Origin: a virus
Direction: 5' to 3' (one strand)
DNA: 64,000 nt
IMG/VR virus record: IMGVR_UViG_3300042542_004852
Shown here: positions 1,810-23,649 of the stretch, piece by piece
Numbering within the stretch: position 1 is the stretch's first letter
Layout of the letters: each line of letters opens with the position of its first letter
Notes under the pieces: generated by a model
What the model was told of the DNA's origin: nothing
The model's database searches: none
The model's input: only the letters and a program-made list of their open reading frames with translations
Position numbers and translations under genes: made by a program

Positions 1810-2207
1810 TTTTTTTTCTTGTTTTAATAGCACTGGGTTTTTTTAGAGGGGGGTGTTTTTTTATTAATTAGGGGGGGTAGTGAGTGCAAGATGGTGAGGA
1901 GCATGGGGGGAGATGAATGGTTGTTTTTAAGAGTGGAGATTGAGAAAACCCACCCCTGGCGCGTTTAGGAGATTTCCTTAGGTCAAATTCTTAGGAAATG
2001 GGGGTGGGTGCTTTTCTTAGTCAACACTAGGGCAGTTACCTACGCCGCCCTAATGGGGGGCAAGCTGTCAAACGAAAAAAGAAAAAACAAATAGTGGCAC
2101 TTGGCACACTAATTACCATAAAAGAAAAACACTAAAAATAAATGCACGTTGCGCTTGCAGGTCTGCGGATTTGTGGCAATATATAAACAGTTAACCAAAC
2201 GAACAAC

Positions 2208-2411
2208 ATGCAAAACGAAATCAACCTGAACGCCCTCGAAACCAAAACTCTCACCGCTCTTCAGTGGGTTATCATCCGCAACGCCTTGCAAGATAAAATG
2301 GAGGAATTCGACAGCGCTGCCAGTTGGGCAGAATCCAAGGGCTACAACAGCGAAACCTACTACCGCAACGAATACGCGAAACGCTCTCAAATCTTGAAAG
2401 CTATCGCATAA
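2208..2411 (+). CDS. Small hypothetical early protein
   Basis: ORF with C-ending codon bias, downstream of a promoter-like element. Confidence 0.65.
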   Translation: MQNEINLNALETKTLTALQWVIIRNALQDKMEEFDSAASWAESKGYNSETYYRNEYAKRSQILKAIA

Positions 2412-2451
2412 AATCGCTTGCGCGTTTAACCTTTCTCTCTACATTCTAATT

Positions 2452-2700
2452 ATGGAAACAAAACAAATGCACAAGGTCTTAGTTCTGGAACAGCACAGCG
2501 ATGCTGAAAGATTCTCCATCGCGGGATGGGAACGCAGCGCTTCGGTGCGCCGTTCATGGAATGAAATGGTTGAAAAATTCCCCGAATGCGTGCGCGAAGT
2601 GTCTGTGAACGCTTGCCCTTGCTACGGTTCCTCTCACTGGAAACAAGGCAAAGACGGACGAATTGAAATCGTCTCTTTGAACTGTGATTCAAGCGATTAA
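2452..2700 (+). CDS. Small hypothetical early protein
   Basis: ATG 6 nt after the TTGCGC-N16-TACATT promoter at 2418. Confidence 0.65.
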   Translation: METKQMHKVLVLEQHSDAERFSIAGWERSASVRRSWNEMVEKFPECVREVSVNACPCYGSSHWKQGKDGRIEIVSLNCDSSD

Positions 2701-2741
2701 TCGCTTGCGCGTCCCTCTTTCCCCTCTACTATCCTCTTGCC

Positions 2742-2954
2742 ATGAACAACGTCTCCCTTGCCACCCTTCCAGAACTTGACCTCCGCTCCATTGAACTTGA
2801 CGGCGTGGACTTTCGCGACTATCCCGACTTCTGTGATGCTTTTATCAGCTATGCGGAAGCAAAGGACGGGACACCTCTGACAAGCGAGCAACTGGAAATC
2901 TTGAATGAAGATTCCGACTTGATTCACACGCTTGCGCATGATTCCTGCCACTAA
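2742..2954 (+). CDS. Small acidic phage protein (DYPDFCDAFI family)
   Basis: Contains 'RDYPDFCDAFISYAE', a motif I recall from small phage proteins. Has its own promoter at 2705. Confidence 0.7.
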   Translation: MNNVSLATLPELDLRSIELDGVDFRDYPDFCDAFISYAEAKDGTPLTSEQLEILNEDSDLIHTLAHDSCH

Positions 2955-3017
2955 TCGCGCAAAATCGCTTGCGTTCCCCTCTTTCCCCCCTATACTCTCA
3001 GCACCCCGCCCCCCACT

Positions 3018-3239
3018 ATGAAAAGCATTCAATTCAAAACCTTCACGCTCTACATTCAATTTTCAGGCTTTAGCCAATCAAAGAAACACATTCACCTTCC
3101 CTTCTATGTCAAGGCATGGCGCAAGCATCCAGCCTATGACAAGCATCTTCAAATTGCCATCTCTAACGCTGCGGTCAGCACTGGCCTTTCTCCCTCTACT
3201 AAGCCTGTCTGTTACTCGCTACTTGCGGGAATGTGCTAA
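3018..3239 (+). CDS. Small hypothetical early protein
   Basis: Follows the promoter TTGCGT-N16-TATACT at 2969. Confidence 0.6.
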   Translation: MKSIQFKTFTLYIQFSGFSQSKKHIHLPFYVKAWRKHPAYDKHLQIAISNAAVSTGLSPSTKPVCYSLLAGMC

Positions 3240-3283
3240 AAAGCACTTGCGCCCCTCTTTCCCCTTTCTACTCTACTCCTGCC

Positions 3284-3466
3284 ATGAACGCCCCCCTCTC
3301 CAAACGTGAAAGATTCGCCCTCCGAACATCCAAGGCCAGCGGCTTGCCAAACGGCTTTGGCCCGCGCCTAGTTAACCCTGCGCCCTACGTCTGCCAGTGT
3401 GCAAGTTGCAAGGTTGAACGTGAACTCGGCCTTTCCCTTCGCACTCCAAAGCAGTGCGAAGCATAA
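3284..3466 (+). CDS. Small basic Cys-containing protein
   Basis: Start MNAPLSK follows the promoter at 3247. Contains CQCASC. Confidence 0.55.
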   Translation: MNAPLSKRERFALRTSKASGLPNGFGPRLVNPAPYVCQCASCKVERELGLSLRTPKQCEA

Positions 3467-3497
3467 GCAAACAACCTAAGCAACAACACTACCCACT

Positions 3498-3662
3498 ATG
3501 CAATTCTCACCTACTGCCGAAGACATGCATGCGCTCGCTAGCGAGCACGACGCACGCTGTGATTCACCTAATCCCGAATGGGATGATTTCCTACGGGAGC
3601 AGGAGGATAAGTTCTTAGACGCCTTCTATGAGAGGGCAGTGGAAAAGTCCTACGAACTTTGA
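3498..3662 (+). CDS. Acidic 54-aa protein, MxFSxTAEDMHA family copy 1
   Basis: Manual translation: MQFSPTAEDMHALASEHDARCDSPNPEWDDFLREQEDKFLDAFYERAVEKSYEL. Confidence 0.75.
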   Translation: MQFSPTAEDMHALASEHDARCDSPNPEWDDFLREQEDKFLDAFYERAVEKSYEL

Positions 3663-3705
3663 CTAAGCCTAGGCTAGGAAACTCTTAAGCCCCTTAAGTG
3701 GGGAG

Positions 3706-3756
3706 CCTAAGAACTTTACCTAGGCCAGGGGCCTTGGGGTAGGTAAAATTCCTAAG
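3706..3756. repeat. 51-bp palindromic inter-cassette element, copy 1
   Basis: CCTAAG-AAC-TTTACCTA-N17-TAGGTAAA-ATT-CCTAAG. Confidence 0.95.
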
Positions 3757-3933
3757 ACTCTAAGCCTAGTTCACCTAAGACAATCCCTTGCCTTTCCCTA
3801 AGACGATTCTCTTGTCAAGAGAAACAAAAGAAATCTTTTCTGCAATCTTGGCATGATAATTTCCATAAATGAAAAAGATGAAAACAAAACAAAAAAGAAT
3901 TTGCGGTTCTCTTGCCATGTGGCATAATAAGTC

Positions 3934-4212
3934 ATGGAAACGAAAACACTGCTTACAAACGAACAAGTCCTCGCCCTTCTCAACAACGTCGCCCCCCGCG
4001 CCGTGACCATCACGAAAGATGAAACTCCGCTGGAAAACATTCTCGCTTCTCTCACTTCTTTCAACTACGAGAAAGAGGACGGCGTGACTCGCGTGGAAGG
4101 CGCAACTTTCCAGCACGTTGCAATCTCAAAGAACACTGGCAAGCAGTATGCCACGTTTAAAACGTCCGATGGAAAGTTCAAGTCTTTCTTCACTGCTCAA
4201 ATTCAATTCTAA
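3934..4212 (+). CDS. Hypothetical early protein
   Basis: Leaderless start after TTGCGG-N16-CATAAT at 3901. Confidence 0.75.
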   Translation: METKTLLTNEQVLALLNNVAPRAVTITKDETPLENILASLTSFNYEKEDGVTRVEGATFQHVAISKNTGKQYATFKTSDGKFKSFFTAQIQF

Positions 4213-4249
4213 TTTGCCAAGCCAGAAAAACCCTTCACCTTCTAACCCT

Positions 4250-4492
4250 ATGAAAAACAAAATCCCCATGCAAGAAAACATCACAATCTCCCGCGAAACT
4301 TTTTCCACTCTGCTTTCTTTCGCTAAGCGCGAGCAGACAATCTGCGACAACAACGCCAGAAACGCCCTTAAGAAAGTCGAGGAACTCCCGAACGACATTT
4401 TCTGGCAGGACTCGGTAAACTTCTGGAGGCAGGAAAGCCAGAACGCCCAGAACACCTACACAAAAGCCCTAGAAGAAGCGCAGACGCTCTAA
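4250..4492 (+). CDS. Hypothetical helical early protein
   Basis: Start moved to MKNKIP. Ends just before repeat copy 2. Confidence 0.65.
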   Translation: MKNKIPMQENITISRETFSTLLSFAKREQTICDNNARNALKKVEELPNDIFWQDSVNFWRQESQNAQNTYTKALEEAQTL

Positions 4493-4500
4493 TCGGGCCT

Positions 4501-4551
4501 CCTAGGTAATTTACCTAGGGGAAGGCCCCTGGCATAGGTAAAATCCCTAAG
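4501..4551. repeat. 51-bp palindromic element, copy 2
   Basis: CCTAGG-TAA-TTTACCTA-N17-TAGGTAAA-ATC-CCTAAG. Confidence 0.95.
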
Positions 4552-4732
4552 ACTCTTACCCTAGGAGTCTTACCTAAGAAGTCTATTTACTATTAGAGCA
4601 TTTAGTATTTACTATTAGGGCGTTTCGAATTTGCAGTTTGATGAATAAAAAACATGAAAAAAAGATTTGCGCGTTCTTTGTTTTCTGTTATTCTATGCGC
4701 GTAGTCAGTTAACCATTAATATATCCTCTGTT

Positions 4733-4930
4733 ATGCAATTCTCTATCACCGCTGAAGACATGCACGCCGCCCGCCCCGCTTATGACCTTGATGAGGTCAA
4801 CGGTTTTGAGGGCGAAGAACCCTCCGACAATCAAGAGTTTGACACTCATGATGATTATGTTGAGCCGATGGAGGACCAGTGGCTTGATAGCTACTACGAA
4901 AGCCAGACCGAATGCGACTTCGGTGAATGA
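4733..4930 (+). CDS. Very acidic 65-aa protein, MxFSxTAEDMHA family copy 2
   Basis: MQFSITAEDMHAARPAYDLDE..., D/E-rich. Confidence 0.8.
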   Translation: MQFSITAEDMHAARPAYDLDEVNGFEGEEPSDNQEFDTHDDYVEPMEDQWLDSYYESQTECDFGE

Positions 4931-4936
4931 CCTACG

Positions 4937-4961
4937 AGGGCGGCGAAAGCCGCCCTTTTTT
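4937..4961 (+). terminator. Intrinsic terminator (GAAA loop)
   Basis: AGGGCGGC-GAAA-GCCGCCCT followed by a T tract. Confidence 0.9.
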
Positions 4962-4971
4962 ATATACATTG

Positions 4972-5022
4972 CCTAGGAGGTTTACCTAGGCCGCGCCCCC
5001 TGGGATAGGTAAAATCCCTAAG
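4972..5022. repeat. 51-bp palindromic element, copy 3
   Basis: CCTAGG-AGG-TTTACCTA-N17-TAGGTAAA-ATC-CCTAAG. Confidence 0.95.
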
Positions 5023-5161
5023 ATTTTCGCCTTAGGTAAGAAGTCTATTTACTATTAGGCGCTTTAGTATTTACTATTAGGAGATTTCGAGTTTGCTATT
5101 TAGGGAATAAAAAATCATTTTTTTCTTGCGCGGACGAGGTAAACCGCTATTCTATAGCCCT

Positions 5162-5293
5162 ATGAACGAAATGAACTTCTCCACTACCGCCGAAGATATG
5201 CACGCCGCCGCCGCTGAGTTCAACGAGTTTTACGACTTGTTGCGCGAGGAGGCATGGGAGCATCAAGAAGCTTCTCTCACGCAAAACAACTAA
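5162..5293 (+). CDS. Acidic 43-aa protein, MxFSxTAEDMHA family copy 3
   Basis: Manual translation: MNEMNFSTTAEDMHAAAAEFNEFYDLLREEAWEHQEASLTQNN. Promoter at 5126. Confidence 0.75.
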   Translation: MNEMNFSTTAEDMHAAAAEFNEFYDLLREEAWEHQEASLTQNN

Positions 5294-5304
5294 ACTTAAA
5301 TCTT

Positions 5305-5502
5305 ATGATGACACCCGACGAATATGATCCCCCCTCTTATGGGGGCACTCCCACGCAGGAAGCCCATGCAGAAATGACTCTTTTGTTTGGCGCGGAAAAA
5401 CCAACTCGCGCTTGGATTCTTACGGACTTTGATGTGTGGGCACCGAATCCTTTTTACTGTGGGCCTCCACAGCCTCATCCAGAAGACGATGACCATTGGT
5501 GA
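5305..5502 (+). CDS. Small Pro/acidic phage protein
   Basis: Contains 'AWILTDFDVWAPNPFYCGPPQPHPED'. Start MMTPDE. Confidence 0.7.
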   Translation: MMTPDEYDPPSYGGTPTQEAHAEMTLLFGAEKPTRAWILTDFDVWAPNPFYCGPPQPHPEDDDHW

Positions 5503-5510
5503 GCATAAGC

Positions 5511-5561
5511 CCTAGGAGAAATACCTAGGGCACGCCCCTTGGCGTAGGTAAAATCCCTAAG
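5511..5561. repeat. 51-bp palindromic element, copy 4
   Basis: CCTAGG-AGA-AATACCTA-N17-TAGGTAAA-ATC-CCTAAG. Confidence 0.95.
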
Positions 5562-5665
5562 AGAAAACAAAAAAACTTTCCTGCAATCTTGGCATGCTAA
5601 TTACTAGAATAAAAACAAGTTAAAAAAGGCATTGCGCGAATCTCTTTTTCTGTTATCTTGTGGCC

Positions 5666-5794
5666 ATGAAGAAAATCACATTTCGCAAGCCAAAAATCCT
5701 CTCCTTCCGCCTCTCCACTCGCAAAGTCGGCGGCATTCGTTTCGTGCGCGTGGGAAAACTTGTCTTTTCTTTCTGCGTGTCAAAAAAGGCTTGA
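5666..5794 (+). CDS. 42-aa basic peptide
   Basis: MKKITFRKPK...VSKKA, leaderless after the promoter at 5632. Confidence 0.6.
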   Translation: MKKITFRKPKILSFRLSTRKVGGIRFVRVGKLVFSFCVSKKA

Positions 5795-6013
5795 CTTCTC
5801 TCCTTTCTCGCTTATCTTATCCCCATGAACGAAGAAATCTTCACCACAATCTTTATCTCACTTACGCAACGCTTTGACCTTGCCTGCAAAGAAGTTGCCG
5901 AGTCGAAAAATGAAAAACTCAAAGACTACTGGCGGGAAGAAGCGGACAAAGCTCTTCAAGCTCGTCGATATATTGTAGAAAAGATTTGACTTCTCTCCTT
6001 TCTCGCTTATCTT
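5791..6013 (+). promoter_or_regulatory. Two identical 28-bp promoters (5791-5818 and 5986-6013)
   Basis: TTGACTTCTCTCCTTTCTCGCTTATCTT occurs twice. Each -35 box overlaps the TGA stop of the preceding ORF. Confidence 0.85.
5825..5989 (+). CDS. 54-aa hypothetical protein
   Basis: MNEEIFTTIFISLTQRFDLACKEV..., leaderless. Confidence 0.65.
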   Translation: MNEEIFTTIFISLTQRFDLACKEVAESKNEKLKDYWREEADKALQARRYIVEKI

Positions 6014-6036
6014 TAACCCGTAACCAAAACAACACT

Positions 6037-6321
6037 ATGAAAGACCTCATCACCAAAGAAAACCTCGTCGCCCTTCTTCGTTCTAAGAAAGAAGCAGTCA
6101 TTGAAGCCCTGAACGGCAAAAATGTCGTTTACCTGAACGAAGGAGAAAGCAAAGTCAAATCCAACGGCGTGCGAAACTTCAAGATTCTGGACATCGAACA
6201 CGTTGGAACTGGCAAAGCTGGCCGAACATTCATCACGGCCAAAGTCGAGGACTTGAACGACAACAGCGAAATCAAGTATCGGAATCTTCACATCGCGGGC
6301 CTTGAACTGGCTTGGGAATAG
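6037..6321 (+). CDS. Hypothetical early protein
   Basis: Start MKDLIT, strong C-ending codon bias. Confidence 0.75.
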   Translation: MKDLITKENLVALLRSKKEAVIEALNGKNVVYLNEGESKVKSNGVRNFKILDIEHVGTGKAGRTFITAKVEDLNDNSEIKYRNLHIAGLELAWE

Positions 6322-6327
6322 TCTTTT

Positions 6328-6391
6328 GAAGAGAGACGGCAATTGGAAAATGCCCCTAATAGGCTAGTAGGTTCAAACCCTACCCTCTTCT
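6328..6391 (+). ncRNA. tRNA-like RNA with collapsed anticodon arm
   Basis: Acceptor GAAGAG/CTCTTC, D arm GGCA-ATTGGAAAA-TGCC, mini hairpin CCT-AAT-AGG, T arm GTAGG-TTCAAAC-CCTAC. Confidence 0.65.
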
Positions 6392-6399
6392 ATCAATTT

Positions 6400-6498
6400 G
6401 AGCGCGAGGCATGGTTGCCTAAGCTGGCAGGATTGTCACCCTACAGTGTAAACTCCAAATGACAATGGAAGCAGGTTCGACTCCTGCCGCGCTCATCA
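6400..6498 (+). ncRNA. tRNA-like RNA with aberrant, expanded anticodon region
   Basis: Acceptor GAGCGCG/CGCGCTC, arm AGGCA-TGGT-TGCCT, stem ATTGTCA/TGACAAT with a 21-nt loop, T arm GCAGG-TTCGACT-CCTGC. Confidence 0.7.
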
Positions 6499-6518
6499 CT
6501 TTTTAATCAATAAAAAAT

Positions 6519-6776
6519 ATGCTACGCCTAGAATCCTCCACTACTTCTGTAAATGCCGCTTGGCATTATCTCTTAGAAAACAAATGCAGCTTTAGCTCTC
6601 CTGTGCAAATGCTTTCTTCTCGCGCCTTGCAAAAGGCAAAGCTCAAACCCCTCGCGCCGATTGAAACTAAAGTAAAAATCCTCTCTAGGGCTAACGCTAA
6701 AAAGAAAGCAAAAACTTTCTTGCTTAAAGCAGAGGAAAAAATTTCAAACCTCGTAAAAAAAATCTCTAGGCGGTGA
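6519..6776 (+). CDS. Basic (Lys-rich) hypothetical protein
   Basis: ORF followed by a hairpin at 6785-6823 and repeat copy 5. Confidence 0.55.
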   Translation: MLRLESSTTSVNAAWHYLLENKCSFSSPVQMLSSRALQKAKLKPLAPIETKVKILSRANAKKKAKTFLLKAEEKISNLVKKISRR

Positions 6777-6830
6777 TAAGACAAAGGGGGTGGAGAGGTT
6801 AGTGTTGTTCCTCTCTGCCCCCTAAGTTTT

Positions 6831-6881
6831 CTTAGGTGATTTACCTAGGCCAAGCGGCCTGGGGTAGGTAAAACTCCTACG
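6831..6881. repeat. 51-bp palindromic element, copy 5
   Basis: CTTAGG-TGA-TTTACCTA-N17-TAGGTAAA-ACT-CCTACG. Confidence 0.95.
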
Positions 6882-6993
6882 CTCAAATGGCAAATTCCCT
6901 ACCGTTTCTTAAGAAAGATGCCTAAGAAGTCTATTTAAGACTTTCCTATTTAGTATTAGGGCGTTTCGAATTTGGATTTTTATCTTTTTCTAT

Positions 6994-7021
6994 TTGACAG
7001 AAGCGCTTTTGCCTCTATAGT
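6994..7021 (+). promoter_or_regulatory. Sigma70-like promoter with 16-bp spacer
   Basis: TTGACA-N16-TATAGT with ATG 6 nt downstream. Representative of about 18 plus-strand copies in 2.1-11.4 kb. Confidence 0.85.
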
Positions 7022-7027
7022 AGAAAC

Positions 7028-7243
7028 ATGAACCACACATTAGAAACCGCAGGCAACCTACTTCGTCAAATCAGTGAAGAAAGCAGAGGCGTGGCCTTGA
7101 CAAAGGAACAAGCGCACATTTTCAACGCAGTGTTCTACAGAGGCATGCTGGAAGACCTCATTGTCGGCAACGAAACAATTGCCAAACATTTTGAAGAACG
7201 CCTTGACCTTGTGCGAAAATACAATAAGCTCTCGCTTGCATGA
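7028..7243 (+). CDS. Hypothetical early protein
   Basis: Leaderless after the 6994 promoter. Confidence 0.7.
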   Translation: MNHTLETAGNLLRQISEESRGVALTKEQAHIFNAVFYRGMLEDLIVGNETIAKHFEERLDLVRKYNKLSLA

Positions 7244-7574
7244 AGAAGACCCATCACCTCGGCACAATCTCAGACCGCGAACTTAAAAAGCGCGTGCGCA
7301 AAGACCTTCCGCCGCCGCCGCAGAAACATAAAAGCGCCAAAGACTACCGCCGCAATCCCAAACACAAAAACAATGGATAGTTTCAGAGCAGAACAAAAGA
7401 AAGAATGCCTTGATAGCAGCAAAAACAAACGCGCCAAATATGGTTGCCGTTGCTGCTGCAAAATTCGAGACGTTAGCGAGCGCAAAAAATACTCTCGCGC
7501 CCTTGCGCGTGCGAGACTCAAAAATAAAGACAAAAAAGATTTGCCAGAAGAATAAAAACCAGTATCTTATCGCC

Positions 7575-7952
7575 ATGACACAATCACAATTCCACAACAA
7601 AGTTTTGACTCATTACTGGCAAGCTCGCAACAAAAAACGCTTTCATGCAATCTCTCAAACGATTGCGGAAATCGAAAGCAGAAAAAATGAAGCAGAACAA
7701 ACGATGCAAAAACTTTTGCCTAAAATGACAAAAGGAAAAGCTAAACCAATCGAATCAGTAGAATTTTATGATGCGCGTGGCGCTTCTGCTGCTCTTGTTG
7801 GCCTGCTCTCCACATTGCGAAAAGTTCGCGAAGAAATCTTTTACAGCATTGATGAAATCGCTCGCTTCACAGAACCAGAGTGGAACGGGCGCGAGCCTTT
7901 GCGCAAACCAGTGAACAGCGAAAAAATGTTTGAAATTCTAAGTGACCTATAA
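7575..7952 (+). CDS. Hypothetical coiled-coil early protein
   Basis: Start MTQSQF, 6 nt after TTGCCA-N16-TATCTT. Confidence 0.7.
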   Translation: MTQSQFHNKVLTHYWQARNKKRFHAISQTIAEIESRKNEAEQTMQKLLPKMTKGKAKPIESVEFYDARGASAALVGLLSTLRKVREEIFYSIDEIARFTEPEWNGREPLRKPVNSEKMFEILSDL

Positions 7953-8039
7953 ACTTTCTTGACTTTCTCTCGCCTAGGGGAAAAGAGGCTCCATGCCTCG
8001 ATCAACGGAGAAATCCCGCGACTTACCCTAGGTGGGGGG

Positions 8040-8090
8040 CTTAATACGTTTACCTATGCGATGCCCCCTGGGGTAGGTAAAATCCCTATG
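8040..8090. repeat. 51-bp palindromic element, copy 6 (degenerate left end)
   Basis: CTTAAT-ACG-TTTACCTA-N17-TAGGTAAA-ATC-CCTATG. Confidence 0.9.
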
Positions 8091-8230
8091 TTCTCTTAGG
8101 GAACACTCCTAGGGGATAACCTTGTCAAGCACTTTCTAAAAGCGTGCCAAGTTTACAAAAATAAAAAAGAATAAAAAACGCACAAAATGATTTGCGCTCT
8201 TTCTTTGCGTGTGCTAAGTTTACCTTGCCT

Positions 8231-8470
8231 ATGAAAAAACAAACACAAGCCATTGATGTGCTGGTCAACCTAGTTGACTGGATGATGACAAACAGCCGCG
8301 AAAACCTCGCGCCTGCTTTTGAAGCCCTGAAACTGGATGCTGACACAATCTTCTCTGCTTTCGACTTTGCTTATGGCGAAGAAGAGGAAGAAGATTCAAG
8401 CGAGCATCTTGTTCCTCGCTCGCAAGTTCGTCAAGAATTGCGTGCAATGGGAGTTGACATTGAAGACTAA
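8231..8470 (+). CDS. Acidic hypothetical early protein
   Basis: Start MKKQTQ, contains an EEEEED tract. Confidence 0.7.
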   Translation: MKKQTQAIDVLVNLVDWMMTNSRENLAPAFEALKLDADTIFSAFDFAYGEEEEEDSSEHLVPRSQVRQELRAMGVDIED

Positions 8471-8489
8471 TCCGCTAGCTTGCATTCCT

Positions 8490-9125
8490 ATGATGACACC
8501 AACACTTGCTAAAGAATTGACTGGCGGGCTTTCCAAGCCTTCTAAAATGCCAGGCTTTGCCTACTCCATCCCCGCGCAAGCGTGCGGGGTTGGTTCACGC
8601 CTTCGCACTGTGCAAGGCTCCATTTGCTCTAAGTGCTACGCTCTAAAGGGGCGTTACGTTTTCAGCAACGTGAAAAATGCCTTGTATCGTCGCCTTGCTT
8701 CCCTTGTGAATCAAGAGTGGGTTGAAGCGATGGCGTTTCAAATCAATCATGCCTCTGTGAATGTTTTCCGCTGGCATGATGCGGGCGATTTGCAATCTCT
8801 CGAACACTTGGAAAAAATCGCGGCAGTTTGCGAGGCTACGCCCGACGTGCGCCACTGGCTACCGACTAGGGAGTATGCTATCGTGACAGAATACAAGGAA
8901 AAGCATGGCGCTTTCCCCGCCAATCTTAACATTAGGCTTTCTGCCTACATGATGGATGGCCCCTTGCCTACTGGCGCTGCTGAACGCCTAGGCGTCACAG
9001 TGTCGGGCGTTACTAGCGACCCTAGTAAAGTTACCTGCCCCGCCTACAAACAAGGCGGCGTGTGCGGCAGTTGCCGCGCCTGCTGGAATAAGAATCAAGA
9101 CGTAGTAATGTATCCTAAACACTAA
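8490..9125 (+). CDS. Phage Gp88-like Cys-rich protein
   Basis: SKMPG...C...CSKCYA...FRWHDAGD...HWLPTRE...CPA...CGSCRACW pattern of the GP88 family. Confidence 0.75.
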   Translation: MMTPTLAKELTGGLSKPSKMPGFAYSIPAQACGVGSRLRTVQGSICSKCYALKGRYVFSNVKNALYRRLASLVNQEWVEAMAFQINHASVNVFRWHDAGDLQSLEHLEKIAAVCEATPDVRHWLPTREYAIVTEYKEKHGAFPANLNIRLSAYMMDGPLPTGAAERLGVTVSGVTSDPSKVTCPAYKQGGVCGSCRACWNKNQDVVMYPKH

Positions 9126-9192
9126 TGGAAATTCTAATTGTTTTTCTTATAGCGATGCTTGCCACGCTGGTCAGATCAAGGTAACTCCTACG

Positions 9193-9219
9193 AGGGGGCG
9201 GGAAACCGCCCTCTTTTTT
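9193..9219 (+). terminator. Intrinsic terminator (GGCGG-GAAA-CCGCC)
   Basis: Hairpin plus T tract, about 10 nt before repeat copy 7. Confidence 0.9.
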
Positions 9220-9229
9220 AGGCTCCATC

Positions 9230-9280
9230 CCTAGGGAATTTACCTAGGCCAGGCCGCCTGGGATAGGTAAAACTCCTATG
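9230..9280. repeat. 51-bp palindromic element, copy 7
   Basis: CCTAGG-GAA-TTTACCTA-N17-TAGGTAAA-ACT-CCTATG. Confidence 0.95.
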
Positions 9281-9457
9281 CCCACATAAGAACATACCCT
9301 AAGCATTCAATTACCGTGCCAACATCGCAAAAACTTTTGTGCAAAAAACTTTGGCCATAATGCAGAAACACGTTGTCTTTTGTTTTTGATGTGTTATCTT
9401 TATGCACGTTCAAAACAGAACGCTTCAACGAACCAAAACCAAAACACGAAAAATACT

Positions 9458-10228
9458 ATGTCACTCCTCATCGCCAAAAACAAAATCTCCTTCGAGCAAC
9501 TCGCCACTGTCGCCACTCCTGAGAAAACCGAATCTTTCCAGCCAATCGGCCACGCCTATCTGGTTGACCAGATGCGCGAGGCAATCGCCCGCGCTGGCTA
9601 CAACGTGAAAGAGGAGGAACACGCGCTCGCCCGCATGGGTCAGCGTTACTTCGGCGGCTTCGTCATTACTGGTAAAAATCTCGACGCAACTGATCGCCAG
9701 CTTGTTCTCGGCTTGCGCAACGCGCACGATAAGAGCTTCGCGGCTTCTGTGTGCATTGGCAACCGAATGATCGTTTGCGAAAACCTTTGTTTCGCCAGTG
9801 ACATTAAACTCGCCCGCAAGCATACCACGAACATCATGCGCGACATTCCCCGCGTTCTCGGCGAGGCTGTGGGTCGCCTTGTCTCTCACTTCACCGACAT
9901 GCAAAACCGCATTGAAAACTACAAGACCTTCGAGCTTGTCGAGGATGAGGCCGCTGGCTTGATCGTTAAACTTGCAGATGCCAAGGCGATTCCTGCCCGC
10001 GAGGTTTACCCCATCATGCAGCAATTCCGCACGCCTAACCATCCTGAGTTCAACGGCCATACGCTGTGGAGTCTCTACAATGGCGTGACAGAATGCCTTA
10101 AGGGCGGCGACTTGAGCAAGCTGCCCGCCCGCACCATGACCATGCAGAGTGTTTTCGATGCTCGCGTAGGTCATCGCCCCATCATCGAAGCGGAGATTGA
10201 CACCGCTGAGCTTGTGATGGAAGCGTAA
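9458..10228 (+). CDS. DUF932-family protein
   Basis: TESFQPIGH...LGLRNAHDKSF...RMIVCENLCF...KHT...TLWSLYNGVTE, a DUF932-like pattern. Confidence 0.75.
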   Translation: MSLLIAKNKISFEQLATVATPEKTESFQPIGHAYLVDQMREAIARAGYNVKEEEHALARMGQRYFGGFVITGKNLDATDRQLVLGLRNAHDKSFAASVCIGNRMIVCENLCFASDIKLARKHTTNIMRDIPRVLGEAVGRLVSHFTDMQNRIENYKTFELVEDEAAGLIVKLADAKAIPAREVYPIMQQFRTPNHPEFNGHTLWSLYNGVTECLKGGDLSKLPARTMTMQSVFDARVGHRPIIEAEIDTAELVMEA

Positions 10229-10241
10229 GCAAAACCTCTAC

Positions 10242-10265
10242 GGGGGGCGGGAAACCGCCCCCTTT
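10242..10265 (+). terminator. Intrinsic terminator (GGCGG-GAAA-CCGCC)
   Basis: Hairpin followed by a short T tract. Confidence 0.85.
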
Positions 10266-10278
10266 CTTATGCCCTACG

Positions 10279-10329
10279 CCTAGGAGTTTTACCTATGCCA
10301 GGCCGCCTGGGCTAGGTAAACTACCTAAG
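10279..10329. repeat. 51-bp palindromic element, copy 8
   Basis: CCTAGG-AGT-TTTACCTA-N17-TAGGTAAA-CTA-CCTAAG. Confidence 0.95.
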
Positions 10330-10525
10330 CAATAAAAAAGAATAAAAAAGATTTGCGGGCTTCTCTTTTTCTGCTATTCTATAGGCCATGAACCAATACG
10401 ACACACCCGCAGAAATAATCCTCATCACAGCAGCTTGGCTAGTGGGCATCATAGCCCTGTTGTCTGTATCAATCATTCTCTGGTATTGATTGACAAAAGA
10501 TAAAAAACACATTAAATTCACCACC

Positions 10526-10816
10526 ATGAACACACTGAAAGAAATCCTTCTGAACGGCGGCTACGTTACTGACGCGGCACACTCTGAACTGAAAAGCATT
10601 TTTCCAAACTTGAACGTCTGCGTCAAGTGGGGCGCTGCCCCTCGCCAATTGACCACGCTTGGCAGTCTGGAATCTGTGCTGGATGCTGGTAAACTTCGCG
10701 GCGACTATGTGCGGGAAGTTTTCGTTCCTGTCAGCGCATTCGACAAGTTGCGCGAGGCTTTCGGCATCACTGACGAAGATCAGCAGGAATACTACAAAAA
10801 CTTTTTGTCAGCTTAA
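10526..10816 (+). CDS. Hypothetical early protein
   Basis: Start MNTLKE after the TTGACA promoter at 10490. Confidence 0.7.
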   Translation: MNTLKEILLNGGYVTDAAHSELKSIFPNLNVCVKWGAAPRQLTTLGSLESVLDAGKLRGDYVREVFVPVSAFDKLREAFGITDEDQQEYYKNFLSA

Positions 10817-10828
10817 CATTGAACCACC

Positions 10829-11188
10829 ATGAAACGAGTAAAAATCTATCGCAATCTTCACAAGCAATGCCTCTCTGTGCTTCACCGCACTGAAAAAGGC
10901 TGGCGGCTTTGGAAACACGTTCCGCGCATTGAAGTTTTTAATGTAGTTTTTAAAGTGTCGCAAGCTGGGCGCGAGCGAGTGCTGAAAGAAAAGCGCAAAA
11001 ATGTTCATGCTTTCATTGAAGGTGACTACGCTGGCGTGACAAATGTGACAAGCTCTAACCTTCGCTTTATTAGATACAATCCCTATGTGGCTGGGCACTT
11101 CTTTGATCAGGATACGAAAAAAGCCGTAAAAGAATCTTCTTGGGCTTTTGTAAACGAAAAAGGCATCATGGCCATAAATGTTCTCTAG
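10829..11188 (+). CDS. Conserved phage hypothetical protein
   Basis: YRNLHK...FKVSQAGRERVLKEKRKNVHAF...YNPY, a pattern I recall from large phages. Confidence 0.75.
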   Translation: MKRVKIYRNLHKQCLSVLHRTEKGWRLWKHVPRIEVFNVVFKVSQAGRERVLKEKRKNVHAFIEGDYAGVTNVTSSNLRFIRYNPYVAGHFFDQDTKKAVKESSWAFVNEKGIMAINVL

Positions 11189-11190
11189 GC

Positions 11191-11219
11191 AAAGGGGGGC
11201 GGGAAACCGCCCCTTTTTT
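11191..11219 (+). terminator. Intrinsic terminator (GGCGG-GAAA-CCGCC)
   Basis: Hairpin plus T6. Confidence 0.9.
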
Positions 11220-11229
11220 ATGCCAATGT

Positions 11230-11280
11230 CCTAGGGAATTTACCTAGGCGAAGCCGCTTGGGATAGGTAAAACATGTAAG
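11230..11280. repeat. 51-bp palindromic element, copy 9
   Basis: CCTAGG-GAA-TTTACCTA-N17-TAGGTAAA-ACA-TGTAAG. Confidence 0.93.
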
Positions 11281-11337
11281 CAATAAAAACAGATAAAAAA
11301 AGAGTTGCGAGGTTCTCTTTTTCTGCTATCTTCTCAC

Positions 11338-11688
11338 ATGGACACGAAAAACATCACCGAACAAATCGAAACCTTCCGCGTTGCCTTGGAAAACATGCTG
11401 CTGGAATATCGCAACGCACGCTTCCCCACGCTGCCAGCGCCCACTGTGGAAATCTCCACTGGCAAACGCTTTGCGCGAATCATTAAAAAAGATGGCGGTC
11501 ATTGGGGCTGTCGGAGCACTGCCAGGACTCATTCCAGAGTTTTCGCTTATGGTTTCATTGATCTAAGCAATGGCGACTTGCTCAAAGCGGCATCATGGAA
11601 AGCGCCAGCCATGCATGCTCGCGGAAACATTTTCAATCAGGACATTCTTTCTGGTTGCGGCCCTTATGGAATGGCGTATCTTAAATAA
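11338..11688 (+). CDS. Conserved phage hypothetical protein
   Basis: GFID..GDLLKAASWKAPAMHARGNIF...YL motif, which I recall from large phages. Confidence 0.75.
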   Translation: MDTKNITEQIETFRVALENMLLEYRNARFPTLPAPTVEISTGKRFARIIKKDGGHWGCRSTARTHSRVFAYGFIDLSNGDLLKAASWKAPAMHARGNIFNQDILSGCGPYGMAYLK

Positions 11689-11693
11689 AAAAG

Positions 11694-11717
11694 AAGCGCG
11701 GGAAACCGCGCTTTTTT
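11694..11717 (+). terminator. Intrinsic terminator (GCGCGG-GAAA-CCGCGC)
   Basis: Hairpin plus T6. Confidence 0.9.
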
Positions 11718-11727
11718 ATGCCCTCTA

Positions 11728-11778
11728 CCTAGGGAATTTACCTATGGCAAGCGGCCTGGGCTAGGTAAAACCCCTACC
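11728..11778. repeat. 51-bp palindromic element, copy 10 (last)
   Basis: CCTAGG-GAA-TTTACCTA-N17-TAGGTAAA-ACC-CCTACC. Confidence 0.95.
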
Positions 11779-11814
11779 CTCACTAAGAAATTCCAGTATG
11801 TTTCCTAGGAGTCT

Positions 11815-11935
11815 TTATTACGCATTTTCTCGTTCACTTATTAGGAGTTTTCTCGTTCACTTATTACGCATTCTCTTATTTGCTATTAAGGCGTTTCGAA
11901 TTCATTATTAGGACGAATCGCATTCACTTATTAGG
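11815..11935. repeat. Degenerate 22-23 bp tandem repeat (YTATTA-anchored)
   Basis: Anchors at 11815, 11838, 11861, 11883, 11905 and 11928. The first two units are near identical. Confidence 0.8.
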
Positions 11936-11938
11936 TGG

Positions 11939-12015
11939 TGGCGCACTCGGTAGGGATCGAACCTACGACCTGAAAATTAGAAATTTCCTGCTCTTGTCCA
12001 CTGAGCTACGAGTGC
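11939..12015 (-). tRNA. tRNA-Arg(UCU)
   Basis: Canonical cloverleaf, anticodon loop TT-TCT-AA, encoded CCA. Confidence 0.93.
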
Positions 12016-12055
12016 ATTTGCCCCTCCTTTCGGAGGGGCGGCTAACGAACCACCA

Positions 12056-12964
12056 TTAACCAATTGTTTCCAAGAGACGCAAGCCTTGACTTGTGATCTG
12101 TCTTGTGCCTTCGATGCGCAGGAGATTCATCTTAAGCAAGTGAAGCTCTGCATCTTTGCGGAGAGCTTGAACGCTAAGGCCAGTGATGGCGCTGAGCATT
12201 GTGAGAGTCAAGGGGCCGCGCTCTTTGAGAGCAGAGAGAATCTGAATCTCTGTATTGGTAAGACCGCGCTTGTTGATGTTGGCTTTGTGGCATAGGCTAG
12301 TCCAATCTTCGGCGGAAAAGTCAGGGCTGTTCTTTCCTTCACAATGCCTTTCAATATCATCAGCACGCTTGACTGCGCTGCGAGCATTGCCGCGAATTGT
12401 CGTGGCGATGTCGTCAAGAACACCAGCGGCGAATTTCACAGCGGGAATGCGCTTCTTGATGATGTCCTTCACTTCGCTGTTGCTATAGGGGGTAAAATCA
12501 ATAACAGTAAGGCGATCTTTGAACGGCGCAAACAAACGATCCATTTCTGTTGTTGCGAACACGAAGTTGATCTTAGAGAAGTCGAAAACGTATTCGACAT
12601 CTTGGTGAGTGTAATGCACCACTGTTTTCTTTTCAGTGTTTAAGATGGAGAGAAAAGCGACGACAAGTTTCTTGGGCAGTTCATGAGCTTCATCCAAGAA
12701 TATCATGCACTCTGTATCTTGAATCTGCGGCATCATCTGCTCGAAGAATTGTTTTTCGTTCTTGATGCTGCTGCTATTGATTTCGTAGAAGCGTTTCTTT
12801 GATGCGGCACCGAGAGCGCGGGCGAATTCAGTTTTGCCAATGCCACGCTGACCGTTGAGCATGATGAATGGAAGAATTCCCGTGTTCTTATAAGCATCAA
12901 GATAAAAGCTGAGTTGACGCTTGATGTGTTCCTGTCCAATGATGTTTTTGAATGCTTGGTTCAT
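12056..12964 (-). CDS. ruvB: RuvB-like AAA+ Holliday junction helicase
   Basis: FKNIIGQEHIK, GQRGIGKT, FLDEAHEL, FATT, FKDR, C-terminal winged helix ending GTRQIT. Confidence 0.8.
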   Translation of the reverse strand: MNQAFKNIIGQEHIKRQLSFYLDAYKNTGILPFIMLNGQRGIGKTEFARALGAASKKRFYEINSSSIKNEKQFFEQMMPQIQDTECMIFLDEAHELPKKLVVAFLSILNTEKKTVVHYTHQDVEYVFDFSKINFVFATTEMDRLFAPFKDRLTVIDFTPYSNSEVKDIIKKRIPAVKFAAGVLDDIATTIRGNARSAVKRADDIERHCEGKNSPDFSAEDWTSLCHKANINKRGLTNTEIQILSALKERGPLTLTMLSAITGLSVQALRKDAELHLLKMNLLRIEGTRQITSQGLRLLETIG

Positions 12965-12993
12965 GGTAGTGGTGGTTCGTTGTTAAGGCTTAT

Positions 12994-13021
12994 ATTATAG
13001 CGGTTTTTTATTCCGCGTCAA
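12994..13021 (-). promoter_or_regulatory. Sigma70-like promoter with 16-bp spacer
   Basis: TTGACG-N16-TATAAT. The same geometry occurs at 13299-13326, 20492-20519, 28646-28673, 30626-30653 and others. Confidence 0.85.
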
Positions 13022-13289
13022 CAAAAATCTCTTCGGGAGGATCAGGAAGAAGTTCCTTGTCGAAGTGCGTCACAGTGAACTGGATCATGGGTTCAACCTC
13101 GCGTTCTTCTGGCGCTGCGGTGACCATGATTGGTGCTGGAGCTTGGATGCTCACGCCGTAATTGCGAAGCCAAATAGAACCAACTGGAACTGCTGTGTCA
13201 GGACCGAACAATTCGTTTAGTTGTTTAAGAGTGATGTTGACAAGGCTTTTTGCGCCTGCTGGACGACCGCGTTTAGGTTGTGTATTCAT
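13008..13289 (-). CDS. Small protein with AT-hook-like KRGRP
   Basis: PKRGRPAG at the N-terminus. Has its own promoter. Confidence 0.65.
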   Translation of the reverse strand: MNTQPKRGRPAGAKSLVNITLKQLNELFGPDTAVPVGSIWLRNYGVSIQAPAPIMVTAAPEEREVEPMIQFTVTHFDKELLPDPPEEIFVDAE

Positions 13290-13328
13290 AAGGTTATTAA
13301 TATAGGGATTTTTTATTCAGTGTCAAGG

Positions 13329-13922
13329 TTATTTTTGCTCCAGAATCCACTCGTCTTCAAGTCTATTGCTTTGCTTCATCCAAATCAACAAATCAATTTG
13401 TGCGATGCTCATGAGGGGGAATTCGCTCTGCGCCAAGTTAAGGAACACTCGCTCAAGAAACAAATACTTTTCTCCTGTTGGAGTAGCGGCTGGGGCATCA
13501 ATACCTTTGCTTCTCATCCATGCCAAGATGTGAATGTCCAGCACAGCACATTCACACTGAGGGCGAGAGTGAAGCAAAAAGAAACGTGCGGTCTTTGGCC
13601 CGCAACCAAACACATTCATCAAGTCTTCCAAAGAAGCAGTCGCGAGGTCAAGATCAAGAGACTGAACAATTGCTTTTGTTAGCCTAGAGTATTGACCAAC
13701 CTTGGCGGCGACCAGTGCGTTGTGAATGCCAGTCTCGCCAAGTTCGCGCAAGTAATCAAAAGGATTTTGTTCGTTAAGCCTTGCCTTGTGCAAGAGACGA
13801 GCCAAGCATCCAGCAGCATAGTCGCTATTCTTTCCTGCTACAAACAAAGAAAAAAGCCAAAACGATTGTAGTTCAGCATTAGTGCGGGAGAAGTTTGTGA
13901 TGTTTTTGGGATCAATGTTCAT
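13329..13922 (-). CDS. HhH-GPD DNA glycosylase-like (8-oxoG/EndoIII family)
   Basis: HhH motif FGCGPKTARFFL plus VLDIHIL with the catalytic Asp. Confidence 0.75.
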   Translation of the reverse strand: MNIDPKNITNFSRTNAELQSFWLFSLFVAGKNSDYAAGCLARLLHKARLNEQNPFDYLRELGETGIHNALVAAKVGQYSRLTKAIVQSLDLDLATASLEDLMNVFGCGPKTARFFLLHSRPQCECAVLDIHILAWMRSKGIDAPAATPTGEKYLFLERVFLNLAQSEFPLMSIAQIDLLIWMKQSNRLEDEWILEQK

Positions 13923-13942
13923 GGCAATAATATAAGGACTTT

Positions 13943-14140
13943 TTATTCAGCGTCAACGGCTTTCTCAAAGTTATTCGCGATAAAGTTGCCATGCTCGTCA
14001 GTGCTAGCAAGAAACAAATCAAAAGCTGCTTCTGCGATTTCATCAACAGTATCAGCGTTCCATTCCTTCTCGCGCTCAAGCAGGCGCAAAACATAAATAG
14101 TAAATAAGCGGCAGCGGTGTTCGTGGAGTTCTTTGTGCAT
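13943..14140 (-). CDS. Small hypothetical protein
   Basis: Leaderless after TTGACA-N16-TATATT. Confidence 0.6.
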   Translation of the reverse strand: MHKELHEHRCRLFTIYVLRLLEREKEWNADTVDEIAEAAFDLFLASTDEHGNFIANNFEKAVDAE

Positions 14141-14741
14141 GGTGATAATATATTGGTTATTTATTCGTTGTCAAGGATTAAGCTGGCTCCCATGAATCAA
14201 TGACATTAACAATAAGACAGTTAATCTCATCCTTGCTCATGCCTTTATCAAGAAGGGGCCAGATGATTTCAATAAGGTCGTTGGTGGTTTCTTCGTTCAT
14301 GGCATCCAATATAATGGAATTTAAACTACTGTCAACATGTTTCGCACTCTTTCTTAAACGCACGAAATATTTCATCTCGTTCTGAGTCAGTGCAGCCGAG
14401 GGATTTTAAATACTTTTTAATGCGCGAAACGGTGCCCAGGTCTTTTAAAACACGAAAAATACTCTTGTGGTAGTTGATCTTATTTGGCGCTGCATCGCTC
14501 ATTTTTTATTTGAACTTAAAGCGTTCATTATTACGAGAAATCGCGTTAGTAAATCTCTTCTGTATAAAACAAAAAAGGAATCAGTGTTGGATAATAAAAC
14601 TCTTCGCTGTATAAGAATTCGCAACTATGCGTGCGACAAAGAGGCTTGTTAGTAAAAAAAACTTTTATAGCTTTGGGGCGAAAAATCCAATGATATTTTG
14701 TTTTCATGTTTTGTTTATTACGAGAAATCGCGTTCATAAAT

Positions 14742-14816
14742 TGGCTCCCAAGTGTGGAGTCGAACCACATTCAACCGTTTATCAGTCGGCCCGCTCAATC
14801 GTGTGCGTTCATGGGA
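14742..14816 (-). tRNA. tRNA-Ile(GAU), atypical
   Basis: Loop CT-GAT-AA, T arm TGTGG-TTCGACT-CCACA, CCA end. Mismatches in the acceptor and anticodon stems, and no GG in the D loop. Confidence 0.7.
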
Positions 14817-14843
14817 TTATTAAGAAAAATCGCATTCGTAAAT

Positions 14844-14919
14844 TGGTTGCAGGGGAGGGATTCGAACCCTCGATCTTTTGATTATGAGCCAAACGACTTA
14901 ACCACTTGTCCACCCTGCT
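14844..14919 (-). tRNA. tRNA-Met(CAU), initiator-like
   Basis: Loop CT-CAT-AA, unpaired 1:72 position (A:A), CCA end. Confidence 0.88.
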
Positions 14920-14962
14920 ATTATTAAGAAAAATCCTGTTCGTAAATTAGATTCGGCGCGTT

Positions 14963-15367
14963 TTAATTGTTCTCTCTGTTTCCGCCGTCCCAAACTATAC
15001 CAAGCTTTCGCCGCTGGTCAACTGAAAAAGTACAGAAAGAATGCAATACACTAGCTGCCCCAAGTTTATATGCATTATTTAATGCGCTAGCCATTAGCAT
15101 TGCCTCGCTCTCAGAAGAAGCAAAAATGTTATGCTCCTCTTCTTTGTCGCTCACTATATATTTGCCGCCTTCTACTTCAAAAATTTTATACTGCTTTTCT
15201 GCAATGTAAGGTGTAAAGGTTTCTTTCTCCTCCTGTTCTTCGATTTTCTCCCACGCTAGGGACCATCCATCACCTCGCTGGTTTTTGCAGCGAGCGCATT
15301 TTTTTTCTTTTGTTACGCGGTGAGTGTATTCTGCGGGCGCTCCGCAGAGCAGTGTGTTGCATCTCAT
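14963..15367 (-). CDS. Hypothetical protein with Cys/Zn-finger-like N-terminus
   Basis: MRCNTLLCGAPA...CARC. Start uncertain. Confidence 0.5.
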   Translation of the reverse strand: MRCNTLLCGAPAEYTHRVTKEKKCARCKNQRGDGWSLAWEKIEEQEEKETFTPYIAEKQYKIFEVEGGKYIVSDKEEEHNIFASSESEAMLMASALNNAYKLGAASVLHSFCTFSVDQRRKLGIVWDGGNRENN

Positions 15368-15537
15368 ATTTGTTTCGTTTGGGTGGGAGTGTCTAGGAAT
15401 TGTTATATTTGCGCGAAAGCTGTTCAAATTTTGTGAAAGCCAAGTGTGTTATTATAAGCGAGAAAAGAAGATAGTCAAGAGGTTTTTTCATTTAACGCGC
15501 TTCATGTCATAAAAGTACCACTGTATTAGCGTTTTTT

Positions 15538-15631
15538 GTGTTTCGCCCTGTGCAAAAGCACACTTTTGGTGTTTCAGCCAGTAAAAAAGCACACTTTTTG
15601 GTGTTTTACCCTGTGCAAAAACACACTTTTG
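15538..15631. repeat. Three tandem 31-32 bp repeats
   Basis: GTGTTTcgCCcTGTgcAAAAgCACACTTTTG three times in a gene-poor T-rich stretch. Confidence 0.85.
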
Positions 15632-16433
15632 GTATTTTTGTGACTTTGCAGCGGGGTTTTAGGGGCATTTTTTAGGGGTTTTTTGGGTGAAAATTGGCAT
15701 TTTTAATACATTTAAATAGCCGCGACAGCTTTTTACCCCTATTTCTCACTATAAACACCCTTTTTCTTCTTGTTTCTTCTCTTATTATTACTATACTCTT
15801 TACTCTCTTTCTTTTGTTTGTTTTTCTCTATTGCTGGGGGTGGTTTGAGTGCCTTGCAATCCAGACGCTCACAATGCCACGTTTGTCATTGATAATCAAT
15901 GATAAAAGCGTTCTTTTTCGCCTCTAAAATCTTGTCCTTTTTCGCCTCTAAATTCAAAGTTTTTTAGCTGCAAATTTTGCGTTGTTTTTTCAACGTTTTT
16001 TGGCTCTAAAACCTCCAAACATTTTTGCAATTCTTGTTCTCTTTCTTGCTTACTAACAAACCAATAAGTTAAAAATTTACAAAGCAGCTTACCTAAGAGT
16101 TTCATTTGTGTTTAGAGTGGTTTAAAATGGCATTAAAATACTATACAATGCGGCGAAAATGTGACAATTCATTAAGAAATCATTACAAATTGCGCGAAAA
16201 TAAGTTTTTGCAGCAATCTGCCCCATTATAAATTGTTTTTTAGAGTAAAATGTTTGTGCTGTTATCTATTCTTTCCAAGATAAACTCTTCTTCTATAGGG
16301 AGTTTTTGAGGTTAGCTGCCCGCCGCCGCAAGAGTCCCCCGAAAATTTCCGAAGGCGTGTGCTCTCTTGCGCTTTTCCACCACTACTTTCTCGTCGGTCA
16401 TTACCAATCCGATTTGGCGAGGTACTTCGGCTA

Positions 16434-23645: not shown

Positions 23646-23649
23646 GGGA

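Follow-up and report, generated by a model that had tools for sequence, protein, structure and literature searches.

Why should a phage place ten copies of a 51-bp element between its small early genes, and what acts on them? The question is raised by a 64,000-nucleotide stretch of the IMG/VR virus record IMGVR_UViG_3300042542_004852 (hereafter the window, in whose coordinates all positions are given). An earlier note on this DNA, made from the letters alone, had described the elements as palindromes delimiting gene cassettes and had favoured integron- or shufflon-like recombination sites, with an operator or DNA-entry checkpoint array as the alternative. Comparison with relatives points to that alternative as the better fit. 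With a probability of roughly 0.6, each element would be a composite docking site on double-stranded DNA whose bound protein insulates neighbouring early units, in a region that resembles the promoter–stem-loop (PeSL) cassettes of T4-like phages.

Ten elements at the boundaries of early units

All ten copies were found where the note had placed them, each with one to three mismatches to the consensus, and 100 dinucleotide shuffles of the window gave no match. The core is 17 bp long in 10/10 copies, as claimed. A loose half-site search of the 64 kb revealed no further copy, confirming that the array is limited to 3.7–11.8 kb, and CCTAGG occurs 21 times within 2–12 kb and nowhere else in the window. 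No Rfam family matches the elements.

3706–3756: element 1 (a 17-bp GC core with a dyad arm on either side), surrounded by a cloud of additional CCTA/TAGG half-sites
4501–4551: element 2, preceded at 8 nt by a stop codon, without GC hairpin terminator
4972–5022: element 3, preceded by a terminator (4936–4957)
5511–5561: element 4, preceded at 8 nt by a stop codon, without GC hairpin
6831–6881: element 5
8040–8090: element 6
9230–9280: element 7, preceded by a hairpin (about 9192–9213)
10279–10329: element 8, with a terminator before it (10242–10263) and a promoter 24 bp 3′
11230–11280: element 9, with a hairpin before it (about 11194–11213) and a promoter 25 bp 3′
11728–11778: element 10, the last of the array, with a hairpin before it (11694–11713), near the convergence of the two early transcription directions

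A GC hairpin with a T-tract lies 10–17 nt 5′ of copies 3, 7, 8, 9 and 10, in agreement with the five hairpin terminators that the note had reported, and a host-type promoter (TTGCG or TTGAC, 16–17 nt, TA..T) lies 24–145 bp 3′ of nine elements. There are thus nine element–promoter junctions and five terminator–element junctions, four of the latter with a promoter downstream, and the terminator–element–promoter repeat recurs about every kilobase. The units are self-contained, and nine have their own promoter; promoter-plus-gene units that lack an element, with promoters equally strong, are also present at 2.2–3.7 and 12–15.5 kb.

Anatomy of the element

In an alignment of 93 distinct copies from 24 loci of the window's lineage, both arms have the form of a 15-bp dyad, TAGG-N7-CCTA, and, being inverted, they face each other across the GC-rich core. 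The arms hold six invariant TA steps, two of which lie beyond the search pattern, and the A/T spacer within an arm is interchangeable, being TTT, AAT or GAT on one arm while the other arm is unchanged. The core is G/C-rich except for a symmetric A and T. The note's statement that CYTGG always stands on the right is correct for the window but does not extend to the family, as some copies at locus L134 are intact in the left half and degenerate in the right.

The note had further proposed that each element could fold into a long single-stranded hairpin or cruciform. Selection for a hairpin would predict that the two halves of a copy pair better than reassorted halves, and they were found to pair slightly worse: the mean number of Watson–Crick pairs across the 51-mer is 16.8 of 24 versus 17.2 for reassorted halves (93 copies) and 16.9 versus 17.7 when the test is made within genomes, and in 999 of 1,000 shuffles pairing was at least as high as observed. 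The folds of single copies have energies of −5 to −11.5 kcal/mol (z −0.3 to −3.4), with structures that are inconsistent between copies, and the AAGC/GCTT change of copy 9, which the note had called compensatory, is uncompensated in the close relatives L085 and L127. Some covariation is seen at core pairs 21–31 and 22–30, and is explicable by a lineage-wide 1-bp shift (L086). From these comparisons we infer that the element is read as double-stranded sequence and does not act as a hairpin substrate.

Two other functions were rejected. A role as Dcm site (CCWGG) in the window's lineage was ruled out because both CCWGG sites survive in just 3/10 copies, and a bidirectional promoter because the actual promoters lie 3′ of the element. 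The element may resemble CsoR/RcnR-type operators, in which a G/C tract lies between TAC/GTA repeats.

Conserved architecture and changing sequence across the phage family

About 120 loci of the family were collected via their DUF932 gene. Most lineages carry 4–18 element copies at similar terminator/promoter boundaries, with sequences that are lineage-specific; on the family tree, element types were assigned by crude counting of patterns. One clade is characterised by the core CCAGG-N3..6-CCTGG, and the window's lineage belongs to it with its TACCTA arms, the arm spacer being 17, or 18 throughout L084/L087. Geometry is uniform within a genome and varies between lineages, with an arm spacer of 17 or 18 and a core spacing of 3–6.

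Core and arm are separable modules, as two patterns indicate. Loci of the L146 type have a 14-bp core that does not vary and, on one or both sides of it at variable distance, an unrelated dyad, TTGAGAC-N3-GTCTCAA, and L088–L091 keep the core without TACCTA arms or TTGAGAC dyads. In a sister clade other G/C cores lie between arms of the IHF-consensus or CTAAC type. The sequence of the element differs even between phages whose RuvB differs by 1–2%. The uniformity within each genome is concerted evolution, driven by gene conversion, by a changing binder that selects its sites, or by exchange of the region in its entirety.

Two further observations concern relatives of the array. The early regions of L108, L110, L103 and L096 have paired IHF-consensus sites around G/C cores at similar positions, and in a distant lineage a 21-bp tandem repeat containing CCTAGG lies near where the early region begins on the left (L176, 3697–3815).

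A proposed docking insulator between early units

The insulator reading, which we favour, draws on the repeat and its position, the modular anatomy, the missing hairpin covariation, the breakpoint distribution given below and the gene repertoire, all of them read from sequence; binding, the identity of the binder and insulation itself are deduced from these. The two inverted dyads would flank a G/C core (CCAGG-N3..6-CCTGG) that constitutes a second site of greater age, and a dimeric or DNA-bending protein would dock on arms and core together, between the end of one unit and the next strong promoter. The bound protein may insulate the units by acting as a roadblock to read-through from the very strong tandem promoters, and its bending or looping of the DNA could place the early promoters under joint control. 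Homologous recombination, with the UvsX/RecA-like recombinase, SSB and RuvB-like motor of these phages, would use the terminator–element–promoter repeats as seams and would also homogenise the copies within a genome. Since these repeats recur about every kilobase, they would offer seams at which cassettes are gained, lost and reordered.

Several findings weigh against this reading. The search for a binder identified no protein, and the model of the AT-hook candidate was poor and had no fold match. The gap between element and promoter varies from 24 to 145 bp and the two never overlap, so that the element is not a simple steric operator. The promoters of the element-free units at 2.2–3.7 and 12–15.5 kb are as strong as those behind elements. 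Finally, the L146 lineage, whose copies all share one 14-mer as core, has several rearrangement junctions at the core edge.

A probable terminal repeat and its left-end site

The most serious competitor, unlikely in our judgement, takes the elements as internal docking sites for a genome-end factor (a small terminase, an end-protection protein or a staged-entry protein), the array organising a terminal repeat that is to be packaged, duplicated or injected step by step, and the position between units merely sparing the genes. It draws on contig depth and on one conserved site:

1900–15600: long terminal repeat of ~13.7 kb, proposed from contig depth and inward promoters
1937–2003, + strand: single-copy site of fixed length (67–68 nt) at the left margin of the early region, kept in 28 family loci

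Exact-match contig depth in run X3 is 51–64 at 4.3–13.1 kb and 29 past 17.2 kb, and in run X1 it is 12.5–15 (one piece 9.6) versus 8.6–9.5. Mixed contigs put the depth edges near 1.76 and 15.6 kb, with about twofold depth between them, and at each edge the promoters face inward. These features point to a terminal repeat of ~13.7 kb, contig depth being a weak measure that may sum strains and two of the runs possibly stemming from the source sample. The site at 1937–2003 holds a degenerate arm together with CCCCTGG, which is the core's right half, and is a candidate genome terminus or packaging site. CCTGG stands within 20 nt of the C-tract of this site in 14/14 loci with a CCAGG core (12 directly, two displaced) and in 0/14 others, and lineages with CTAAC arms have a CTAAC arm inside their equivalent of the site. 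Against this, the CCAGG-core lineages form one clade, so that the CCTGG match counts as a single event and serves as a lead; the elements occupy only 3.7–11.8 kb of the proposed repeat; and no conserved right-end motif was found. Three short direct repeats lie at 15530–15640, near the presumed right edge, and are not kept in distant lineages.

A bolder and, we believe, still less probable proposal would join the two readings: one phage protein, co-evolving with its sites by lineage, would bind both the terminus at 1937–2003 and every element between units, the elements being head-to-head internal copies of the end signal, and would couple staged DNA entry or terminal-repeat processing to the stepwise release of early units.

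A possible decoy for a host protein

Rapid turnover of the arms invites another explanation, which we rate as improbable: the first-entering DNA could be a decoy array that titrates a nucleoid or defence protein of the host (an IHF-like one in one clade, another factor here), with arms that track the hosts. The sister-clade arms do match the IHF consensus, and in genome G003 strict matches to it number 26 in the 15-kb early region versus 0–4 per 5 kb elsewhere; arms and cores change fast between phages of near-identical RuvB, and extra half-sites cluster around each element. A decoy, however, needs neither a fixed geometry nor a constant placement between terminator and promoter, and the one scan made of prokaryote genomes (185,579) with the strict full-element pattern returned zero matches.

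Genes move, without enrichment of breakpoints at the element

Comparison of relatives bears out the expectation that units are gained, lost and reordered. Cassette 9 is missing from L129, and the unit at 4957–5286 (element 3, a promoter and a paralogous small gene) from L125 and L082; cassette order in the window differs from that in L131, and likewise that in L146 from that in L152, and order swaps or losses of whole cassettes were also seen in the comparisons of L146 with L147, L150 and L152. Site-specific recombination by a phage or host recombinase at integron- or shufflon-like sites would produce such events, and the element can be read as having a 13-7-13-like symmetry. The breakpoints nevertheless argue against dedicated recombination sites. 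Of 121 distinct junction edges, the core holds three against 2.8 expected and the element 11 against 8; 36 lie no more than 80 bp from it, with 22 expected. The edges are alignment ends, imprecise and non-independent; the null comes from one genome, whereas the observed count takes the nearer of two. Edges within 80 bp of an element fall at terminators and start codons, and many events are at repeated promoters (for example 5791/5986). Only one loss in the window's lineage runs cleanly from element to element, that of L129; it fuses terminator 9 to sequence just left of element 10, the crossover preceding that element by about 10 bp. The L150 crossover maps to a run of 24 identical bases, the core among them; homology would account for it, and it is also compatible with a site-specific route.

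The central bases vary between copies and the spacing between lineages, the cassettes carry their own promoters, and gene-scale blocks in relatives keep one orientation, with no inverted segments. The note had seen no recombinase in the window, and the search of the rest of the genome (relative G002) and of family records was likewise without tyrosine, serine or Y1 enzymes: PF00589 (tyrosine recombinase) had no match in the incomplete records G001–G003 and G007–G009, host enzymes lying outside the scope; PF00239 and PF07508 (resolvase, large serine recombinase) had none in six-frame searches of incomplete family records; PF01797 (Y1 transposase) had none in five family records or among the listed Pfam matches of the window; and no integrase is among the listed Pfam matches of its 67 open reading frames (ORFs). 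None of the 15 contig joints listed, of 65 in the assembled contigs, links two cores. Present instead are a UvsX/RecA-like recombinase, SSB and a RuvB-like motor. Genes thus appear to move by ordinary recombination and not by an integron-like enzyme; the integron/shufflon reading is not supported and, largely refuted for the window's lineage, keeps an even slimmer chance than the decoy.

Hardly credible, finally, is an extruded cruciform or a hairpin of single-stranded DNA or RNA serving as a nuclease, primase or terminator signal, for which the folds of single copies, the slight covariation in the core and the adjacent RuvB-like gene could be cited, but whose folds vary by copy, whose halves pair below reassorted ones and whose covariation the 1-bp shift of L086 can explain.

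Genes and other features of the early region

The array carries and adjoins the following genes:

8490–9125, + strand: GP88-family early gene (PF17338)
9458–10228, + strand: DUF932 early gene (PF06067), the family marker
10829–11188, + strand: L5 gp82-like gene (PF25735)
11338–11688, + strand: DUF7717 gene of cassette 9, which relatives have replaced, extended or lost
12056–12964, − strand: RuvB-like AAA+ motor with winged helix, adjoining the array in 41/50 family loci
13008–13289, − strand: small AT-hook (RGRP) protein, the candidate binder, adjoining the array in 34/50 family loci

The RuvB-like and AT-hook genes form a conserved pair at the array; RuvA and RuvC are absent among the listed matches and were not searched for directly. 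The models of the AT-hook protein (pTM 0.27, no fold match, Atlas matches to unnamed viral clusters) and of the DUF932 protein (seven-sequence alignment, low confidence with pLDDT 63, no match at Z ≥ 8) are poor and carry no information on the actual folds.

In many early units (window 2418–11338) the start codon lies 6–10 nt past the −10 box, the −35 box being mostly TTGCG. This spacing leaves no room for a Shine–Dalgarno sequence and suggests that the early mRNAs of this stretch are leaderless. Three paralogous small acidic genes with a common N-terminus (3498–3662, 4733–4930 and 5162–5293) suggest duplication of units. A second family of repeat motifs (TACTATTAG / TTATTAGG / TTATTACGC) lies 3′ of some elements (4570–4630, 5045–5085, 6925–6965 and 11810–11935) with varying copy number, and a related dyad lies 3′ of the core in distant relatives. 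Cassette 4 contains a tRNA-like sequence without normal anticodon (6328–6500), of which 6391–6501 is missing from most close relatives.

The phage and its probable host

The window is part of a large tailed siphophage of about 125–133 kb with lambda/T5-type tail-tip genes, uncultured and known mostly from lake metagenomes. At both of its ends the window overlaps relative G002, and the two together cover a whole genome of about 125 kb; G002 encodes Pol III alpha, DnaB, SSB and the UvsX/RecA-like recombinase, and a tail gene of the window is a lambda-type minor tail L. The Pfam scan covered 67 window ORFs of at least 65 aa with ATG starts, large structural genes set aside, and lists 25 of 31 families. 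No terminase ORF was located among ten candidate ORFs, and PF00216 (HU/IHF) had no match in G002 or G003. GenBank phages contain no cultured or annotated relative as judged by the RuvB-like protein, and the literature search found no published description of the element or the phage family.

The hosts are probably PVC bacteria. The best hint is an intact pair of genes, DUF1549/DUF1553 and DUF1501 (22410–25419), which is kept in many related contigs and whose named cellular homologues are from Planctomycetota. CCGG occurs zero times in 1900–64000, where about 45 are expected, and GTAC is nearly missing from the early region (2 versus 17), a scarcity that probably reflects avoidance of restriction sites.

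Comparison with known systems and meaning for the family

PeSL cassettes of T4-like phages are small orphan genes swapped by homologous recombination in a hypervariable early region (PMC2839356, PMC4122927), with crossovers in the shared promoter sequence (PMC2839356). The note had named them as a precedent, and they prove to be the right one; crossovers here fall in terminator/promoter homology. Both systems consist of repeated units of GC stem-loop terminator and sigma70-type promoter in a hypervariable early region, where genes are gained, lost and replaced with edges in the repeated unit. The present array differs in having a separate, rigid core and two-dyad element between terminator and promoter, in leaving, in many units, no room for a Shine–Dalgarno box at the 3′ end, in arms that turn over between lineages, and in a phage with lambda/T5-type tail-tip genes and Pol III alpha and no T4 core. 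For the mini-circles that PeSL cassettes form during infection, the material covered here is assembled contigs, with no core-to-core joint among the 15 listed.

Cluster O mycobacteriophages carry 17-bp dyad repeats (7-3-7) genome-wide, one third of them inside genes, which are predicted to be bound by a dimeric protein, are not tied to promoters and seldom lie at indel edges (PMC4351075). The likeness consists in many copies of a dyad suited to a dimeric protein, with binding here predicted from sequence; unlike them, our elements are composite, 51 bp long and restricted to the early region, where every copy lies between genes. The first-step DNA of T5 and the host-takeover module of SPO1 are about 10–14 kb of terminal DNA with strong host-type promoters and small genes, and T5 has one injection-stop region. 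Early genes in a long terminal repeat would be common to these phages and ours, where the repeat is a probable one suggested by contig depth, but here a site lies between each unit in place of one stop region. With integron attC sites and the R64 shufflon the array shares regularly spaced palindromes bounding gene units. It differs from integrons in that the column frequencies of the 93 copies show no RYYYAAC ... GTTRRRY ends, in the lack of an IntI match in the records searched and of hairpin covariation, in cassettes with their own promoters and in breakpoints that are not enriched at the site; from the shufflon in having no invertible segments and no Rci-like enzyme (no PF00589); and from REP/RAYT systems in having no Y1 HUH transposase beside the palindromes (no PF01797). 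The region is therefore PeSL-like and carries in addition a dyad array akin to that of Cluster O; it is not a strict PeSL member, and fails the tests for integron, shufflon and REP/RAYT.

Within one phage family a constant architecture, a GC core between inverted protein sites, is kept while its sequences turn over genome-wide, from IHF-consensus arms to unrelated dyads, which provides a clean natural series. Such a series makes the function of dyad arrays in the early regions of large phages testable: the predicted binder should shift its specificity with the arms, and the terminal site offers a test of the link to DNA entry or packaging. The finding also extends PeSL-type shuffling to an abundant family of aquatic phages, probably on PVC bacteria.

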